A stretch of 64,000 bases of DNA, taken from Parcubacteria group bacterium (GTDB lineage: Bacteria; Patescibacteriota; Minisyncoccia; JACPHC01). Under the pieces are notes generated by a model, which was not told the origin of the DNA, did not search any database, and saw only the letters and a list, made by a program, of their open reading frames with translations. Of this stretch, positions 6,821-61,350 are shown piece after piece. How positions within the stretch are numbered: the first letter of the stretch is position 1; the number at the start of each line of letters is the position of its first letter. The DNA is taken from positions 31,333-95,332 of the forward strand of contig JACPHC010000010.1 of the NCBI GenBank assembly GCA_016188775.1, read 5' to 3'. Made by a program: the position numbers and the translations under genes.

Positions 6821-6866
6821 ATTTCACTACAATGACCTCACGATCGTGAGGTCATTGTAGTGAATA
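6821..6866. repeat. perfect 42-46 bp palindrome (family C copy 1), TTCACTACAAT-GAC-CTCACGATCGTGAG-GTC-ATTGTAGTGAA
   Basis: Perfect palindrome centred on CGATCG between the mfd stop and the dprA start; second copy at 61307-61350 has a compensated 3-nt change. Confidence 0.8.
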
Positions 6867-14572: not shown

Positions 14573-15055
14573 ATGAAGAAAACAAAAATAATAACGGACA
14601 AGAAAGATATTGAAAAACTTCTCGTAAAACAGACTGCGGTAATTTTAAACGCGGTTGATGAGAAAATTTCAAAGCTTGACAAGTCAGTTGATGAGAAAAT
14701 TTCAAAGCTTGACAAGTCAGTTGATGAGAAAATTTCAAAGCTTGACAAGTCAGTTGATGAGAAAATTTCAAAGCTTGACAAGTCAGTTGATGAGAAAATT
14801 TCAAAGCTTGACAAGTCAGTTGATGAGAAAATTTCAAGACTTAGTTTGGAAATAATTAAAAGAGAAGCCCATATGGACGCGCGACTTGGAAAGCTTGAAG
14901 AAAGATTGACTAAAAAAATCGATCAGCTTACTACGGCATTAGATAAGTTTCTCACCCGTCTTACTGGACTCGAGCAAGAATTTATATTTATGAAGGAAGA
15001 TATAAAAAGAATAAAATCAATTTTAAAAGAGAAAATTGGAGTCGATTTAACTTAG
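14573..15055 (+). CDS. hypothetical coiled-coil protein with 11-residue tandem repeats (VDEKISKLDKS x5, then a diverged copy), lying between ftsA and ftsZ
   Basis: 160-aa ORF; five perfect 33-bp DNA repeats encode a perfect hendecad repeat; C-terminal heptad-like region (LGKLEERLTKKIDQLTTALDKFLTRLTGLEQE). Confidence 0.55.
   Translation: MKKTKIITDKKDIEKLLVKQTAVILNAVDEKISKLDKSVDEKISKLDKSVDEKISKLDKSVDEKISKLDKSVDEKISKLDKSVDEKISRLSLEIIKREAHMDARLGKLEERLTKKIDQLTTALDKFLTRLTGLEQEFIFMKEDIKRIKSILKEKIGVDLT
14654..14851 (+). repeat. 33-bp direct tandem repeat, 5 perfect units plus 1 diverged unit
   Basis: gttgatgagaaaatttcaaagcttgacaagtca repeated head-to-tail with no spacers, so not CRISPR; lies inside the 14573..15055 CDS. 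Confidence 0.95.
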
Positions 15056-16445: not shown

Positions 16446-18752
16446 ATGTTAAAAAATCCCATCAAACAAGTTGAAAAACGCGACGGCCGGATTGTTGATT
16501 TTGATCAGGCGAGAATCACCAGCGCTATTTACCGGGCCATGGAAGCGGCGAACGAAGGCGATTTGGGTCGGGACCCTCAAAAAGTTTCCGATCGCGTGGT
16601 CAAAGAGTTGATAAAAAAATATTCCAAAGGAGGGATTCCAAAAATAGAAGAAATTCAGGACGTCGCGGAAGAGTCTTTAATTTTATTGGATTTCCCCAAA
16701 GTCGCCAAGGCTTACATTCTTTACCGGCATGAGCGTTCGCTGGTTCGGGAGAAACAAAAATTTATTCCGGAGCGCGTTAAAAAATTAGCCAGCGAGTCTA
16801 AAAAATATTTCCGCAATCCTTTGGGCGAATTTATTTTTTACCGGACTTATTCGCGCTGGATCGAAGAAGAAAATCGAAGGGAAACTTGGATTGAAACGGT
16901 TGATCGCTATGTTAATTTTATGAAAGAAAATTTGGGCCAGCGGCTGAAAGAAGATGAATACGCGACGATTCGCGAGGCGATTTTAAATCAGGAAGTAATG
17001 CCTTCAATGCGGCTTTTATGGAGCGCGGGCAAAAGCGCTAAAGCCACTAATGTTTCGGCCTATAATTGTTCTTATTTAGCACCCTCAAAAATAGAGGATT
17101 TTGCCGAGATTATGTATCTACTGATGTGCGGCGCCGGAGTCGGGTTTTCCGTGGAATCGCAGACAGTTCAAGAATTGCCGATCGTCAAGCGTCAGAATGG
17201 AAAAATAAGAGAGGCTTACGCGATAGCCGACAGCAAAGAAGGCTGGGCCGACGCTTTGACTCTTGGTTTAAAAACTTGGTACGAAGGAGAGGATATTGAA
17301 TTTGATTTTTCCCAGCTTCGGCCGGCTGGAGCCCGTCTTAAAACCATGGGCGGCCGAAGTTCCGGCCCGGCTCCTTTGGTCGCTCTTTTGGATTTTACTC
17401 GGAATAAAATTTTGTCCAGACAGGGAAAGAGATTGAGCAATTTAGATGTTCACGATATTATCTGCAAAATCGCGGATTTGGTGGTGATGGGCGGCGTTCG
17501 GCGATCGGCCCTGATTTCTTTATCGGACCTTGACGATGAAGAGATGCGATTTGCCAAAACCGGACAATTTTACTTGACTGACCCGCAGAGAATGCTGGCT
17601 AATAATTCGGCTGTTTATAATTATCGGCCGACTTCAACCCAATTTTTGGACGAGTGGCTGGCTTTGGCCAAAAGCGGCACGGGCGAGCGGGGAATTTTTA
17701 ACCGCGGCAGTCTAAAAAATCAATTGCCGGAGAGGCGTTGGAAGGTTTTTGAGAAATATTGGCAGACGTCCGGCACTAATCCCTGCGGCGAAATTATTCT
17801 AAGATCGAAGCAATTTTGCAATCTTTCGGAAGTGGTGGCGCGAGCCCAAGATACCGAAGAAACTTTGCTTAGAAAAGTTGAAATAGCGGCGATTTTGGGA
17901 ACTTATCAATCAACTTTCATTAATTTTCCATATATTTCCAAAGATTGGAGGAAAAATTGCGAAGAAGAAAGGTTGCTGGGAGTTTCCATAACCGGCCAGT
18001 GGGATAGTTCGGCCGCCCGATCTCCGGAAATTTTACGAAAATTAAAAGTTCAAGCCGTTAAAACAAATCGTCAATACGCCAAGAAATTCGGCGTTAACGA
18101 ATCAACGTGCGTGACGTGCGTTAAGCCGTCCGGCACGGTTTCGCAATTGGTGGATGCCGCTTCGGGCATGCATCCGCGCCACGCCAAATATTATATTCGC
18201 CGGATCCGTATTTCCGCCACTGATCCGCTTTTCCAAATGTTAAAGGAACAAAAATTTCCCTATCAGCCGGAAGTGGGGCAATTGGAAAATTCCGCCACTA
18301 CTTACGTGTTGGATTTTCCGGTTAAAGCCCCCAAAAGCGCGGCTTTAAGAAACGATTTGACGGCTATGAGTCAGTTGGAGTATTGGAAAATTGTTAAAAT
18401 GAATTACACCGAGCATAATCCTTCCGTGACCATTACCGTTGACGACGGCGAATGGATTGAGGTGGCCAATTGGCTTTATCAAAACTGGGACATGCTGGGC
18501 GGTCTTTCTTTTTTGCCTAAAGAAAAACACGTTTATCAATTGGCTCCTTATGAAGAAATTACCGAAGAGAAATATGTTGAGTTAATGTCTAGAATGCCCG
18601 ATATTGATTTTTCCCAAATTATCGCTTACGAAAAAGAAGATCAGACAACCGGCGCCAAAGAATTGGCCTGCGTGGGCGGAGTTTGCGAAATTGATCCGGA
18701 AGAAGGCAGCGTGCCAACAGCAGAGACAAAAATTATCGCGGCCAGTTATTAA
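16446..18752 (+). CDS. nrdJ: ribonucleotide reductase with N-terminal ATP-cone, probably class II (B12-dependent)
   Basis: ATP-cone (VEKRDGRIVDFDQARITSAI); NPCGEI active-site motif; C-terminal Cys pair; no adjacent NrdB-like gene; class assignment is inference. Confidence 0.65.
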   Translation: MLKNPIKQVEKRDGRIVDFDQARITSAIYRAMEAANEGDLGRDPQKVSDRVVKELIKKYSKGGIPKIEEIQDVAEESLILLDFPKVAKAYILYRHERSLVREKQKFIPERVKKLASESKKYFRNPLGEFIFYRTYSRWIEEENRRETWIETVDRYVNFMKENLGQRLKEDEYATIREAILNQEVMPSMRLLWSAGKSAKATNVSAYNCSYLAPSKIEDFAEIMYLLMCGAGVGFSVESQTVQELPIVKRQNGKIREAYAIADSKEGWADALTLGLKTWYEGEDIEFDFSQLRPAGARLKTMGGRSSGPAPLVALLDFTRNKILSRQGKRLSNLDVHDIICKIADLVVMGGVRRSALISLSDLDDEEMRFAKTGQFYLTDPQRMLANNSAVYNYRPTSTQFLDEWLALAKSGTGERGIFNRGSLKNQLPERRWKVFEKYWQTSGTNPCGEIILRSKQFCNLSEVVARAQDTEETLLRKVEIAAILGTYQSTFINFPYISKDWRKNCEEERLLGVSITGQWDSSAARSPEILRKLKVQAVKTNRQYAKKFGVNESTCVTCVKPSGTVSQLVDAASGMHPRHAKYYIRRIRISATDPLFQMLKEQKFPYQPEVGQLENSATTYVLDFPVKAPKSAALRNDLTAMSQLEYWKIVKMNYTEHNPSVTITVDDGEWIEVANWLYQNWDMLGGLSFLPKEKHVYQLAPYEEITEEKYVELMSRMPDIDFSQIIAYEKEDQTTGAKELACVGGVCEIDPEEGSVPTAETKIIAASY

Positions 18753-18815: not shown

Positions 18816-18916
18816 AAAGCCGGTCTAATCCGGCGGTCGTAAACTTTTTGGGTGTTTTTACTCTTTGGAGTATTGATCCTGAAAAAGGATGAAGGCCGCC
18901 GGATTAGACCGGCTTT
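18816..18916. other. long hairpin (23-bp stem, ~55-nt loop with an inner hairpin) downstream of the RNR gene
   Basis: aaagccggtctaatccggcggtc … ggccgccggattagaccggcttt, nearly perfect complement; possible terminator or sRNA. Confidence 0.5.
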
Positions 18917-19062
18917 GTCTACTTCATGCTCTAATAATAATTTTTAATTATTTTTTTTATTTTGTTATAATATTTCAAGCATTTACTTGCTATCGCTTAT
19001 AAATGCTAAAATGGATAGTTTATAGTTTTAAGTTTAAAAATTATTAATCTATTTTAAAATCT

Positions 19063-19623
19063 ATGTCTTTTGGTCCAGGAGTTGTGCAACGGAAAATTTT
19101 ACTTCTACTTTTAGGCGGGTTATCTCTTAGTTTTTCCAGATCGCCGCGGCAATATTTTAGTATTCTTAAAGAAATAAGAAAAAAGTGGAAAAAAATAAAT
19201 CAGCAATCCTTGCAGCGAGCAATAAGAAGTTTATACAAGAATCGTCTCATCACTGAAAAATATAATCGTGACGGAACAATTACGCTTGCGCTTTCCGATG
19301 CCGGCCGTAAGCGCGCTTTGATTTTTAACCTAAATGAAATGTCAATCAAGAAACCGAAGACGTGGGATAAAAAATGGAGAATTATTTTGTTTGATATCCC
19401 TGAAAATAGAAAAAAAATACGGGAAGCTTTACGTTTTCATCTTCAACGTTTAGGTTTTAGACAATTGCAGAAAAGCGTTTTTGTTTATCCTTATCCTTGC
19501 GATGATGAGGTGGATTTTCTTATTGAATTTTATCAAATTAAATCTTTTGTCAGAAAAATGTTCGCTGTTTCGATTGATAATGAATTGTATTTTAAACAAA
19601 AGTTTTCTCTTTTTAATAGTTAG
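19063..19623 (+). CDS. PaaX-family-like transcriptional regulator, short form (winged HTH plus PaaX middle domain, no C-terminal domain)
   Basis: N-terminal wHTH-like region (…LALSDAGRKRA, compare PaaX YSLSDKG); WDKKWRIILFDIPENRKKIREALRFHLQRLGFRQLQKSVFVY resembles the PaaX WDGKWLLLL…GFG core and is Cas2-fold-like. Confidence 0.5.
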   Translation: MSFGPGVVQRKILLLLLGGLSLSFSRSPRQYFSILKEIRKKWKKINQQSLQRAIRSLYKNRLITEKYNRDGTITLALSDAGRKRALIFNLNEMSIKKPKTWDKKWRIILFDIPENRKKIREALRFHLQRLGFRQLQKSVFVYPYPCDDEVDFLIEFYQIKSFVRKMFAVSIDNELYFKQKFSLFNS

Positions 19624-19781
19624 TTGGCTAATTAGAATAGCAATTTGATTAGTTAATAACTACATTATAGATTTTATTTTTAGCACTTAATCGCGATAGC
19701 AAGTAAGTGCTAAAAATAGTTAATTTAGCTAGTAAAGATAATTAAACTAATACTTGATTTTATTTAATTAAATTTTTAATC

Positions 19782-21206
19782 TTGTCTAATATGTCTAAAT
19801 CTCGGATTTTTTTAATTTGGCTTCTTTGTTTTATTGCCGGAATTTTTTTCGCTTCTTATATCAGTTGGCCGAAATTATTTTTAATATTTTTATCCATTGT
19901 CTCTTCGGCGGTTATTCTGGTTTTTAGAAAAGAAAAAATTATTTTTATTTTTGCGGGCGGAATTTTGATTTTTAGCCTCGGATTTTTAAGAATCGCGGGA
20001 ATCGCGGAGAAAAAATCGACGCTTGATCAATATTTAGATAAAAAAATTATTAGCCGAGGAATAGTAATGGCCGAGCCAAAAACAAAAGGAGAATCAACCA
20101 GTTTTCTTTTGGAAATTAGGGGAGAAAAAATTCAAATCAGAACCCGAAATTATCCGATTATCAATTATGGCGACGAATTAGAAGTTCAGGGCCAGCTTAA
20201 ATCGGTTCAAAATTCCGCTATCCGCTACGCTCTCAATTGGCCCAAAATTGAAATTCAAAAAAAAGATCAAGGGAATTTTTTCAAATCCAGTCTTTTTAAA
20301 TTAAAAGAAAAATTCAGCCAAAATATTTCTCAAAATATGCCCGAACCCGAAGCCTCGCTGCTGGCCGGCTATATTTTCGGCTCCCGAAATCTTCCTTCGG
20401 ATGTCGAGCAAAATTTTAAAACCCTCGGCCTTTCCCATATCGTCGCGGTTTCCGGTTTTAATTTAAGCGTTATCGCGCTTTTTATCAGTCAAATTTTTAC
20501 TTATTTTAATTGGCCTCGTTTTTTGAAATTTTGGAGCGCCGTTTCCATTATTTTTCTTTTTGTTTTAATGATCGGTTTTCCGTCTTCGGCCATGCGGGCC
20601 GCGATTATGGCTATTTTAGTTTTAGTGGCGGAAAAAGAAGGCCGCTTGTACGAATCCGCTCATGCCATAATTTTTGCCGGCGCTCTGATGCTTTTATTGG
20701 ATCCTTTAATTTTGCGTTTTGACCTGGGGTTTTCTTTGTCGTTCTTAGCGACTTTGGGGCTGATTTTTCTCTCGCCGATTTTACCGAAATATCTGCCTCA
20801 ACTCGTTTCCCAGACTTTGGCCGCCCAAATTTTTGTTTTACCGGTTCTGCTTTTAAATTTCGGCGTCGTCTCTCCCTACAGTTTATTGGTTAATTTTTTG
20901 ATTTTGCCCTTGGTGCCTCTGGCCATGCTTTTAGGATTTTTAGCCGGCCTGACTGGTTTTATTTTTCAAATTTTGGCCGAAATTATCAGTTGGCTGGCTT
21001 GGCCGATTTTATTTTATCAAATTAAAATCGCTCAATTTTTTTCTTTTTTCCCTTACGCCAAGATTAATTTCGGAAAAATCAGTTTGATTTTCGCCTTTAT
21101 TTATTACGCGGCGATTGGATTTATTATTTTTAAAAATAGAAATAAAGTACCCACTTCCACTTGCGGCGCTGATGTTTTGTTGGGGCATAATAAGCAGGTA
21201 TCCTAA
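19782..21206 (+). CDS. comEC: ComEC/Rec2 DNA-uptake channel, membrane part (DUF4131 + competence domain)
   Basis: Polytopic membrane protein; competence-domain motif LSHIVAVSGFNLSVIALF; the stop codon lies inside a family A repeat. Confidence 0.75.
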   Translation: MSNMSKSRIFLIWLLCFIAGIFFASYISWPKLFLIFLSIVSSAVILVFRKEKIIFIFAGGILIFSLGFLRIAGIAEKKSTLDQYLDKKIISRGIVMAEPKTKGESTSFLLEIRGEKIQIRTRNYPIINYGDELEVQGQLKSVQNSAIRYALNWPKIEIQKKDQGNFFKSSLFKLKEKFSQNISQNMPEPEASLLAGYIFGSRNLPSDVEQNFKTLGLSHIVAVSGFNLSVIALFISQIFTYFNWPRFLKFWSAVSIIFLFVLMIGFPSSAMRAAIMAILVLVAEKEGRLYESAHAIIFAGALMLLLDPLILRFDLGFSLSFLATLGLIFLSPILPKYLPQLVSQTLAAQIFVLPVLLLNFGVVSPYSLLVNFLILPLVPLAMLLGFLAGLTGFIFQILAEIISWLAWPILFYQIKIAQFFSFFPYAKINFGKISLIFAFIYYAAIGFIIFKNRNKVPTSTCGADVLLGHNKQVS

Positions 21207-21362: not shown

Positions 21363-22259
21363 ATGCTTAAGAAAATTATTAAAAATAAAAAAGGTTTAAT
21401 TTTCGGCTTTTTCGGGTTTTTAATTTTAGCCAATTTTTTAATCTGGACTTCGGTTTTCAGTAAAGCCGAGAGCCGATTTTTGCGCGTTTATTTTTTTGAC
21501 GTCGGCCAGGGAGACGCGATTTTTATTGAAACTCCGGGAAACAATCAAATTCTCATTGATGGCGGGCCGACCGATAGAATTATGGAAAAATTAGGCCGAA
21601 CTATGCCATTTTACGACCATTCAATAGATTTGATTATTTTGACTCATCCGCACGCGGATCACGTCAGCGGCCTGATTAATGTTTTAAAAAATTATGAAGT
21701 CAAAATGATTTTAATGAGCGATGTCAGCTATAACACGGCCGAATATCAGGAATTTTTAAGGCTGGTTAAAGAGAAAAATATTCCGGTTATTTTTGCCGAA
21801 CCGATGCGTTGGCGCTTGTCCAGCGGCGTTATTTTAGATATCTTAAACCCAGCGCAAGATTTGCAAGGAATTAGTTTAAAAAATGTTCATGACGGGGCGG
21901 TGGTCGGTCAATTAAAATACGGCCGAAATATTTTTCTTTTGACTTCGGATATTGAAGAAAATATAGAAAAACAACTTGTTCTGGCTTATGGCGATTCCTT
22001 GAATTCCGATATTTTAAAAGTCGGACATCACGGATCGAAAACTTCATCCTCTCCGGAATTTTTGAAAACAGTTTCTCCAAAAATTTCAGTAATTTCGACT
22101 GGCCGGAAAAACCGTTACGGCCATCCGCATCAAATAACGCTTGATCGTTTGCGAGAAATTGGCAGCCAAATTTTTCGCGCTGATCTGGACGGAGATATTG
22201 AGATTAAAAGCAACGGTGATATAATGGAAATAGATCTGTCGCGTAATAATTTTCGGTAG
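21363..22259 (+). CDS. ComEC-type metallo-beta-lactamase domain protein (separate ORF)
   Basis: N-terminal TM helix; FFDVGQGDAIFIETP…LTHPHADHVSGL…VGHHGSKTSSS: MBL-fold motifs typical of the ComEC C-terminal domain. Confidence 0.75.
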   Translation: MLKKIIKNKKGLIFGFFGFLILANFLIWTSVFSKAESRFLRVYFFDVGQGDAIFIETPGNNQILIDGGPTDRIMEKLGRTMPFYDHSIDLIILTHPHADHVSGLINVLKNYEVKMILMSDVSYNTAEYQEFLRLVKEKNIPVIFAEPMRWRLSSGVILDILNPAQDLQGISLKNVHDGAVVGQLKYGRNIFLLTSDIEENIEKQLVLAYGDSLNSDILKVGHHGSKTSSSPEFLKTVSPKISVISTGRKNRYGHPHQITLDRLREIGSQIFRADLDGDIEIKSNGDIMEIDLSRNNFR

Positions 22260-22307: not shown

Positions 22308-22775
22308 ATGAAAGAACGAACCTTGATTATAATTAAACCCGACGCTCTCCAAAGAAATCTTTTGGGCGAGATTATTTCCCGTTTTGAGAAAAAAGGGTTA
22401 AAAATTATCGGTTTTAAAATGATGGAATTGGGCGACGTTCTTTTGGAAGAACATTACGCTCATCATAAAGATAAAAGTTTTTTTGCCGGTTTGAAACGTT
22501 TTATGAAAAGTTCGCCGGTGATTTTGACGGTTCTTGAGGGCCCGAATATCATCAAAAGCGTTAGATTGATAGTCGGTCCGACTCGGGGATACGAGGCTGA
22601 CGCCGGAAGCATTCGGGGAGATTTTTCAATGAGCGCCCAATACAATATCGTTCACGCTTCGGATTCCCTAGAAAACGCCGAAATAGAAATCAGAAGATTT
22701 TTTGCCCCGGGAGAGCTTTTCGATTATCCCAAAGTTGATTTTGAATGGATTTATTCGGAGGAAGAGATTAAATAA
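22308..22775 (+). CDS. ndk: nucleoside diphosphate kinase
   Basis: ERTLIIIKPDALQRNLLGEIISRFE; NIVHASDS active-site His region. Confidence 0.85.
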   Translation: MKERTLIIIKPDALQRNLLGEIISRFEKKGLKIIGFKMMELGDVLLEEHYAHHKDKSFFAGLKRFMKSSPVILTVLEGPNIIKSVRLIVGPTRGYEADAGSIRGDFSMSAQYNIVHASDSLENAEIEIRRFFAPGELFDYPKVDFEWIYSEEEIK

Positions 22776-61210: not shown

Positions 61211-61306
61211 AATGTCGCCGCATATTATTCTTCAAATTTTTTTACATATTTTTAAACGATCGTTTGAAAAGAAGAAGGGATTTTAAAAAAATAAAGGATT
61301 TAAAAT

Positions 61307-61350
61307 TTTCACTACAATCAACTCACGATCGTGAGTTGATTGTAGTGAAA
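61307..61350. repeat. perfect palindrome, family C copy 2 (TTCACTACAAT-CAA-CTCACGATCGTGAG-TTG-ATTGTAGTGAA)
   Basis: Same outer and core sequence as 6821-6866 with the internal triplet swapped and compensated. Confidence 0.8.

Follow-up and report, generated by a model that had tools for sequence, protein, structure and literature searches.

The stretch of DNA considered here (the window) comprises 64 kb from a bacterium of the Parcubacteria group and harbors a gene for a protein of 186 amino acid residues (aa), located at 19063..19623 on the + strand. The gene adjoins nrdJ, which encodes a class II ribonucleotide reductase (RNR), on its upstream side and ComEC on its downstream side, and it lies between two near-palindromes of related sequence, the upstream U (18971..19014) and the downstream D (19675..19718). 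The DNA between nrdJ and comEC was described as very AT-rich in the initial annotation, and this is borne out by the intergenic GC content around the gene, 0.21–0.25 vs 0.41 for the whole window. The gene itself has a GC content of 0.333 and a GC content at third codon positions (GC3) of 0.28, the corresponding window medians being 0.425 and 0.427. No second gene of the same family was found in the window by tblastn or by the family hidden Markov model (HMM). As is argued below, the gene probably encodes a minimal PaaX-type autorepressor having two private operators which flank its own gene, namely a 5' operator positioned over the promoter and an auxiliary 3' operator acting by looping or as a roadblock.

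The protein consists of a winged helix-turn-helix (residues ~1–95) and a Cas2-like domain (PaaX_M, residues ~99–186), the latter carrying W101-D102-x2-W105, D111, R120, Q136-x-S138 and C146. The Pfam model PaaX_M (PF20803, 'PaaX protein central Cas2-like domain') matches residues 99–165 with an E-value of 3.8e-22 (78.6 bits, cut-off 24). Besides this model the Pfam scan returned only a sub-threshold HTH_12; neither an N-terminal PaaX model nor PaaX_C was matched, and the chain ends at residue 186. TIGR02277 (PaaX) aligns with residues 45–166 (E-value 2.9e-8), its score of 33.6 bits being far under the cut-off of 264.55. TIGR01573 (cas2) reaches 25.8 bits against a cut-off of 24.5, but only the first 38 of its 96 profile positions are aligned; several Cas2 models of PADLOC match weakly, with 15–26 bits. 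The structure model of the protein displays N-terminal helices and a beta-hairpin wing. Its best match in the PDB according to Foldseek is E. coli PaaX (8a39, 137 columns aligned, weak E-values from ~3e-3), and ranks 2–8 are occupied by Cas2 structures (weak E-values of 4e-3 to 1e-2), which form a long series. A profile search of the PDB sequences gave only the PaaX-like Rv0674 (3kfw) with an E-value of 0.94. The protein is a fusion of a winged helix with a Cas2-like domain, i.e. a truncated PaaX architecture. A PaaX-type winged helix-turn-helix with a Cas2-like core and without the C-terminal domain of PaaX had been proposed from sequence motifs, and the profile and structure matches agree with this; of the PaaX, PaaX_C and Cas2 searches suggested for the check, that for PaaX gave a clear match to the central domain PaaX_M, PaaX_C was not matched and the cas2 match is confined to the 38 positions mentioned.

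The sequence is identical to that of a hypothetical protein from a metagenome-assembled genome of the Parcubacteria group. More than 1200 homologs (~184 aa, up to 66% identity) were found, all of them from Patescibacteria and annotated variously as PaaX, Cas2 or hypothetical proteins. A profile search of 1.84 billion cluster representatives (clusters at 50% identity) returned 352 clusters with E-values of at most 1e-30 and 2603 with E-values of at most 1e-10. Among 104 divergent representatives, the residues conserved in at least 90% of the sequences are G81, W101, D102, W105, D111, P113, R120, Q136, S138, P143, C146 and F181, conservation being higher in the C-terminal domain (0.54) than in the N-terminal domain (0.39). 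Asp111 is present in all 104 representatives, Gln136 in 95% and Ser138 in 99%. Asp111 sits at the end of strand 1 in the segment WRIILFDIPE, and we take it to be the equivalent of the catalytic Asp of Cas2, judging from the TIGR01573 alignment, which starts at residue 105, and from general knowledge. On a similar basis (HMM alignment and general knowledge) Q136-K-S138-V-F presumably corresponds to the Q-x-S-V-F motif of Cas2. No description of this family or of its arrangement between private palindromes was found in the literature.

The two palindromes of the window were detected through the 19-mer AGCAYTTACTTGCTATCGC, which occurs exactly twice in the 64 kb, at 18978–18996 (+) and 19693–19711 (−); none of 100 dinucleotide shuffles contained two matches. 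Each copy constitutes the left part of a 30–44 bp near-palindrome of the form AGCAYTTA-N14-TAARTGCT; where the copies differ, by a single T/C, the other arm has the corresponding A/G. The centres are located between 18992 and 18993 and between 19696 and 19697, i.e. 704 bp apart, in agreement with the earlier description of inverted flanking near-palindromes ~700 bp from each other. In U the core GCTATCGC (18989–18996) is flanked by the boxes AGCATTTA (18978–18985) and TAAATGCT (19000–19007), and positions 5–7 from the centre are not symmetric. The centre of D lies 73 nt past the stop codon; its core GCGATAGC (19693–19700) is inverted relative to that of U and is flanked by the boxes AGCACTTA (19682–19689) and TAAGTGCT (19704–19711). 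Both copies fold as stable hairpins (−20.3 kcal/mol and z −6.2 for the sense strand of D).

An extended −10 element, TGcTAAAAT (19004..19012, + strand; hexamer 19007–19012), is situated inside the gene-proximal arm of U. The palindrome extends over the −35 and spacer region and adjoins the −10 hexamer. Transcription would start near 19019, which corresponds to a leader of ~44 nt. A perfect extended −10 element, TGTTATAAT, at 18964–18972 was considered as the promoter of the gene and rejected, as there is no enrichment at this place in the family and the proximal-arm element is enriched; it is possible that TGTTATAAT is a second promoter at the window locus.

To describe the arrangement in the family, the window was compared with 80 fetched loci containing relatives of the protein (L001–L080), which together hold 82 family genes of Patescibacteria. 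For each flank the best symmetric centre was taken, provided that at least 12 of 18 positions were symmetric, and the core pattern was then required. This procedure gave 136 sites; its threshold inflates the symmetry percentages given below (in 200 nt of background the most frequent best score is 10/18, and 13 is seldom reached). Local alignment of the upstream flank with the downstream one reveals a common element scoring far above shuffles in most loci, and a palindrome scan shows long, often perfect palindromes with arms up to 26 bp on both sides of family genes. The upstream element is found at 69 of the 82 genes and the downstream element, following the stop codon, at 67. Of these genes, 76 have at least one such site and 60 have one on each side. 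For searches in longer DNA, a class palindrome was defined as the core together with a box in which 7 or more of the 8 positions are symmetric. The layout is a trait of the whole family and not of the window locus alone. Tandem class palindromes on one side of the gene are seen in some loci (L021 at 1010 and 1046 as well as in 362–423, L028 at 4576 and 4630). An N-terminally truncated paralog is located directly upstream of the main gene in L003 (2312–2710); it has no class palindromes, lies beside a poly-G run and may be the result of a frameshift or an assembly error.

Three zones can be distinguished in the site, counting from its centre (shown below as a raised dot). The core common to all sites occupies positions 1–4 and reads [G/A]C[G/T]A·T[C/A]G[C/T], with C3 in 100% and A1 in 93% of the cases. 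Positions 5–7 are variable and the least symmetric (65–75% by position, 69% together). The box at positions 8–15 is 84–96% symmetric by position and 92% complementary, and it has the loose consensus C13 A12 n n T9 A8. In the controls the complementarity of the boxes amounted to 24–30% when the partner was slid by 1–3 positions and to 43% when the sequences were shuffled within columns. All four pair types occur at 7 of the 8 box positions and three of them at position 9. Symmetry falls off from position 16 to position 20. Such a three-zone site with a loosely symmetric spacer would fit the binding of a symmetric protein to duplex DNA.

The arm sequences are specific to the locus. Over 28 nt the median identity of the arms is 79% within a locus vs 39% between loci, and in 55 of 60 loci the within-locus value exceeds the 95th percentile of the between-locus pairs. 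Two or three paralogs with 49–77% identity are present in 16 genomes, each with an arm sequence of its own, and several such units could therefore coexist in one small genome without cross-talk. The 625 kb surrounding family genes contained 128 class palindromes, of which ~115 lie at the flanks of the genes, and 587 kb of related control DNA chosen via nrdJ contained 5 class matches, compared with 1–3 in shuffles. Because of this difference the class palindrome can be regarded as essentially confined to the flanks of family genes. These observations bear on the question whether the palindromes are read by some other factor, or are structural DNA acting as cruciform, recombination, replication or boundary signals, so that their link with the gene is indirect. 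Such an explanation would agree with the core being near-invariant family-wide while the arms vary, with orphan sites away from family genes (at 6843 and 61328, described below) and with symmetry extending beyond the contact of a single dimer. It is nevertheless highly improbable, as hardly any sites lie away from the flanks of family genes and paralog-specific arms call for a diversified reader, the sole such candidate at every locus being the encoded protein.

The upstream centre is preferentially located at −26 or at about −46 relative to the ATG; the downstream centre is found from +6 to +99 after the stop, sometimes overlapping the stop codon, and the spacing of the two centres ranges from 599 to 732 bp across the family. 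No helical phasing of the inter-site distance was detected; the best period, 9.5 (R 0.21), fell within the range of the null. Among 60 loci, 27 have the two copies in direct and 17 in inverted orientation, and in 16 the two orientations are indistinguishable. The last result is of importance for the second proposal of the initial annotation, according to which the palindromes could be terminal inverted repeats of a small cassette; if this cassette were mobile, the encoded protein would mobilise it. The two copies are indeed inverted in the window, the genomic contexts of family members vary widely, several family copies occur per genome, the GC content of the gene is low vs the host and family genes are often located at contig ends. 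However, the orientation of the ends is not fixed, and they are functionally unequal, a regular promoter being present in the upstream copy only. Near-identical copies in the same genome were not seen, the paralogs being only 49–77% identical, and no transposase, recombinase or HUH signature is found among the residues conserved in at least 90% of the representatives. In six genomes both the place and the orientation of the gene are the same: it is found between rmuC and rplU, with recR, dnaB and cysS following on the opposite strand. Varied context is not diagnostic in these organisms, where even the housekeeping gene nrdJ keeps its neighbor ftsZ in just 6 of 80 related loci, and the contig ends are probably technical, since Logan assemblies break at class palindromes. 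No relative was found in the viral contigs of IMG/VR, and there was no PHROG match of note. The borders of the elements are fuzzy, and target-site duplications were not obvious in 44-nt windows, no systematic search having been made. A mobile cassette is therefore very unlikely, and the terminal-repeat part of the earlier proposal finds no support.

Synteny is generally poor among the relatives of the locus: in 80 metagenome loci related through nrdJ (up to 73% identity) neither the 186-aa gene nor comEC follows nrdJ in a single case. In two metagenome contigs the nrdJ match is split by ~1.1–1.4 kb of unmatched sequence (L148 2466–5825 and L149 443–4150), which suggests an intein, an intron or another insertion within the reductase gene.

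The promoter register observed in the window is seen again in the family. A −10-like hexamer starting at position 15 of the proximal arm is present in 18 of 68 upstream sites, in 17 of them with the extended TG, as compared with 7 of 67 downstream sites (6 of 67 with the extended −10) and 5 gene-distal arms of upstream sites. A second cluster of −10-like hexamers is located at positions 34–36. Relative to the ATG, the hexamer begins at −12/−13 in 26 of 69 loci, which implies leaderless or near-leaderless mRNAs. With the −10 element in its proximal arm, U should lie outside the transcript, and a protein bound to it would exclude RNA polymerase.

The downstream site was found with co-directional next genes in 50 of 58 cases and with convergent ones in 12 of 17; the next start codon lies anywhere from 32 to 457 nt away. 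Since the site is anchored to the stop codon and the direction and distance of the next gene vary, it belongs to the family gene and not to comEC. The family gene is located immediately upstream of rplU (ribosomal protein L21) in the six genomes mentioned above (L002, L004, L007, L022, L030 and L032), and the downstream palindrome therefore falls inside the rplU upstream region there.

The same data are relevant to the idea that the palindromes form hairpins in the mRNA, within its 5' and 3' untranslated regions, and serve there as stabilisers, terminators or RNA elements bound by protein. It is true that both copies fold stably, as described for the sense strand of D, and that the downstream copy is in a likely 3' untranslated region. 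However, the transcript starts past the upstream palindrome, as judged from the −10 element in its proximal arm; the sense strand shows G·T and A·C mismatches in about equal numbers; and the asymmetric cores (such as GCTATCGC vs GCGATAGC) occur in either orientation at either end of the gene. The hairpins are followed by A-runs and not by T-runs, and a terminator scan found none at either palindrome. No Rfam family was matched at gathering thresholds in the whole window; near the gene there was a chance microRNA match with an E-value of 0.08. Besides, a function as RNA would not explain why the two copies have sequence in common. We regard such a role as extremely improbable.

The autorepressor proposed here would act in the following way. 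The winged helix would serve as the DNA-binding domain and the Cas2-like domain as the dimerisation domain, the ligand-binding C-terminal domain of PaaX being dispensed with. The dimer would occupy a two-fold symmetric duplex site of 30–40 bp in such a manner that the two winged helices read the locus-specific boxes 8–15 bp on either side of the centre (AGCAYTTA / TAARTGCT in the window), and the conserved Cas2-like dimer would be placed over GC[G/T]A·T[C/A]GC, the near-invariant core at the centre. Occupation of the upstream site would exclude RNA polymerase and result in negative autoregulation. The downstream site just past the stop codon would be a second high-affinity operator; most likely it would loop the ~0.7-kb gene together with the upstream site or block transcription through the 3' end in either direction. 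We infer the binding of the encoded protein to the sites, its geometry and the ensuing repression, looping or roadblock from the position and sequence of the sites. A precedent is provided by PaaX of E. coli, which recognises TGATTC-N27-GAATCA and, by hindering RNA polymerase, acts as a repressor at its own Px promoter (PMC9493321). The domain homologous to the Cas2-like one is called a dimerisation motif in PaaX, and no structure of a PaaX–operator complex had been determined as of the 2022 review (PMC9493321). According to Mantel tests, divergence of the boxes is better correlated with that of the winged helix (r 0.29, partial 0.25) than with that of the Cas2-like domain (r 0.19, partial 0.09), and the core variants track the Cas2-like domain slightly more than the winged helix (0.12 vs 0.08). 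This signal is modest and confounded by phylogeny. A comparison by eye of the recognition-helix region with the box types gave no simple rule, and a residue-by-base recognition code was not adopted. Taken with the −10 register, the locus-specific arms that diverge with the winged helix and the PaaX precedent (PMC9493321), these results favor the suggestion of operator sites for autoregulation made in the initial annotation.

Several points weigh against the autorepressor. The assignment of the protein to the sites is derived from co-location and co-variation, and co-inheritance of the gene with its flanks would give part of this signal. The symmetry percentages are inflated by the selection of sites with at least 12 of 18 symmetric positions. 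Differences between the copies are often compensated within the palindrome: among 117 double changes 70 are paired changes in both arms, and ~35 double changes would be expected from the counts if the arms were independent. Symmetry reaching arms of 20–26 bp appears to exceed the likely footprint, and a plain model of a dimer on duplex DNA would leave both observations unexplained. Either the formation of a hairpin or cruciform matters or template switching homogenises the arms of long palindromes. The operator function of the 3' site is proposed from its position and sequence, and the distance between the sites shows no helical phasing. Other targets are nearly lacking in the surroundings of the gene, which is unusual for a regulator. 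Finally, the full conservation of Asp111 seems more than a pure dimerisation scaffold would need.

Some of these points lead to another explanation, namely a self-contained nuclease module with an active Cas2- or VapD-like domain. In such a module the palindromes would hold expression low, sequester the protein or be hairpin or cruciform substrates, and the whole would resemble a fused toxin–antitoxin, addiction or defence gene for which autoregulation is a means and not the function. It would account for the invariance of Asp111 in the 104 representatives and for the retention of the Cas2 motif Q-x-S-V-F (Q136 95%, S138 99%), for the matches of Cas2 HMMs and of Cas2 or VapD structures to the domain, for nearly all sites flanking the gene itself with little regulon, for several orthogonal paralogs in one small genome, and for the compensated arm changes and the many long and perfect palindromes. 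The base composition is in line with it as well: the GC content of the family gene is below that of its neighbors in 81 of 81 loci (median −6.5 points) and GC3 in 75 of 81 (median −8.5 points). The low GC may come from low expression, from foreign origin or from a need for flexible DNA between the sites, and a selfish or accessory reading is kept alive by it. On the other hand, there is a single gene with no conserved adjacent partner in 81 loci, in contrast to a type II toxin–antitoxin pair; PADLOC gave only the weak Cas2 matches and no defence system; no relative was found in the viral contigs of IMG/VR; and in six genomes the gene has a stable place among housekeeping genes (rmuC, rplU, recR, dnaB). 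Moreover, the homologous domain of PaaX is described as a dimerisation motif (PMC9493321). A nuclease module, tightly self-repressed and either toxin-like or DNA-processing, is unlikely, though it is the main alternative to the autorepressor. Its bolder version, a new kind of autonomous module in which the winged-helix–Cas2 fusion has a live active site and recognises, perhaps nicks or processes, its own extruded hairpins, has a somewhat smaller chance still. If it were true, it would be a selfish, addiction-like or genome-marking element of ultra-small bacteria and a free-living case of Cas2 acting on palindromic repeats outside CRISPR.

The autorepressor can be compared with several known systems. 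PaaX of E. coli and Pseudomonas, responsive to phenylacetyl-CoA (PDB 8a39, 3l09), has an N-terminal winged helix and a Cas2-like central domain as well, and its spaced inverted half-sites and repression of its own promoter follow the logic proposed for the 186-aa protein. In contrast to it, the protein described here has 186 and not ~305–316 aa, lacks the effector domain PaaX_C, scores 33.6 instead of 264.55 bits with TIGR02277 and has no paa genes nearby. Its half-sites are closer to each other (~21–23 bp centre to centre) and enclose an invariant central core. A proposed second operator past the stop codon, several orthogonal paralogs per genome and retention of the Cas2-type Asp also distinguish the family from PaaX.

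Cas2 dimers lie across duplex DNA in the structures of the Cas1–Cas2 integrase. The position proposed for the Cas2-like dimer over the palindrome core would be similar. Unlike in Cas2 and VapD, the domain is fused here to a winged helix, neither cas1 nor a CRISPR array was seen, and no recurrent neighbor appears in the 81 loci (the neighbors identified in the window are ftsZ, nrdJ, comEC and a metallo-beta-lactamase (MBL) protein). The cI gene of phage lambda lies between OL and OR, and DeoR, LacI and GalR have auxiliary operators. By analogy, the operators proposed here would be hundreds of bp apart and would flank the regulated unit, as these operators flank it or lie within it. Each of them is, however, one long palindrome, a regular promoter is missing from the 3' site, and unlike for the looping repressors there is no known oligomer beyond a dimer and no helical phasing of the site distance. 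Finally, a gene flanked by cognate palindromes and paralog-specific palindrome families are features of REP/RAYT systems (REPtrons) too. The family differs from them in that it has no HUH/Y1 protein, with neither a His-hydrophobic-His motif nor a conserved Tyr among its conserved residues, and in that the palindromes are not dispersed: the motif has two copies in 64 kb, and the class is at background in the 587-kb control.

The probable novelty of the family consists in PaaX-like repression with an operator pair at the 5' and 3' ends kept family-wide, in fast-diversifying orthogonal specificities and in a retained active-site residue of Cas2. Patescibacteria have tiny genomes with few recognisable regulators and no genetics, and the cis-elements of this family can be read at nearly every locus. 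Dozens of putative natural orthogonal protein–operator pairs make DNA recognition of the PaaX type directly testable, and the family gives rare access to the way in which uncultured bacteria control transcription, their promoter architecture and leaderless starts included. A regulator gene between two private palindromes, with the catalytic Asp of Cas2 kept and almost no other targets, is a puzzle.

A search of the genome for other copies of the motif had been recommended. In the window the exact motif is restricted to its two sites, and the motif class has two further members, orphan class palindromes at 6822–6865 (centre 6843) and 61307–61350 (centre 61328). Both are near-perfect, 42–44 bp long and have the core ACGATCGT. 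The first is located 45 nt past the stop codon of mfd and 112 nt upstream of dprA, and the second 114 nt upstream of an open reading frame (ORF) of 104 aa, which precedes a Cys-rich repeat protein of 648 aa. The orphans are 54.5 kb apart, differ from each other by compensated changes and have a common arm, TTTCACTACAAT..CTCACGA·TCGTGAG.., unlike the arms of the 186-aa gene. As the window contains no second family gene, the protein that reads the orphans must be encoded in another part of the genome. At 61251–61270, 70 nt before the orphan at 61328, there is a short palindrome, TTTTAAACGATCGTTTGAAAA, whose core is likewise ACGATCGT. Other loci have few orphans, mostly in intergenic regions upstream of genes; in L063 a third copy of the local motif is situated 50 nt upstream of a two-gene operon. 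Small regulons therefore exist, most sites still flanking the regulator gene.

Logan contigs of this bacterium (SRR12113420 and SRR12113424) break exactly at the orphans: L081 ends at ~6854, and L082 and L083 start at ~61321. Breaks of de Bruijn assemblies at long class palindromes probably explain many of the family genes found at contig ends. Class palindromes break short-read assemblies in this way and leave metagenome-derived genomes fragmented.

The ORFs within 4 kb of the 186-aa gene are ftsZ, nrdJ, comEC, the MBL protein and an ORF of 155 aa (22308–22775). The nrdJ gene (16446–18752) encodes a class II RNR with ATP-cone, RNR_Alpha and RNR-II insertion domains, and the ComEC gene (19791–21206) encodes Competence and DUF4131 domains. 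ComEC is apparently split into this membrane ORF and a metallo-beta-lactamase ORF at 21363–22259, with 156 nt between them. Directly 3' of nrdJ there is a 101-nt hairpin (18816–18916) with a perfect G+C-rich stem of 21 bp (GCCGGTCTAATCCGGCGG and its complement). The 183-nt stretch containing it has a folding energy of −75.7 kcal/mol (z −7.9). The hairpin is present in a single copy in the window, has no Rfam match and could be a terminator, a small RNA or an insertion remnant. Upstream of ftsZ, an ORF of 160 aa (14573–15055) has the peptide DEKISKLDKSV in five or six copies arranged in tandem.

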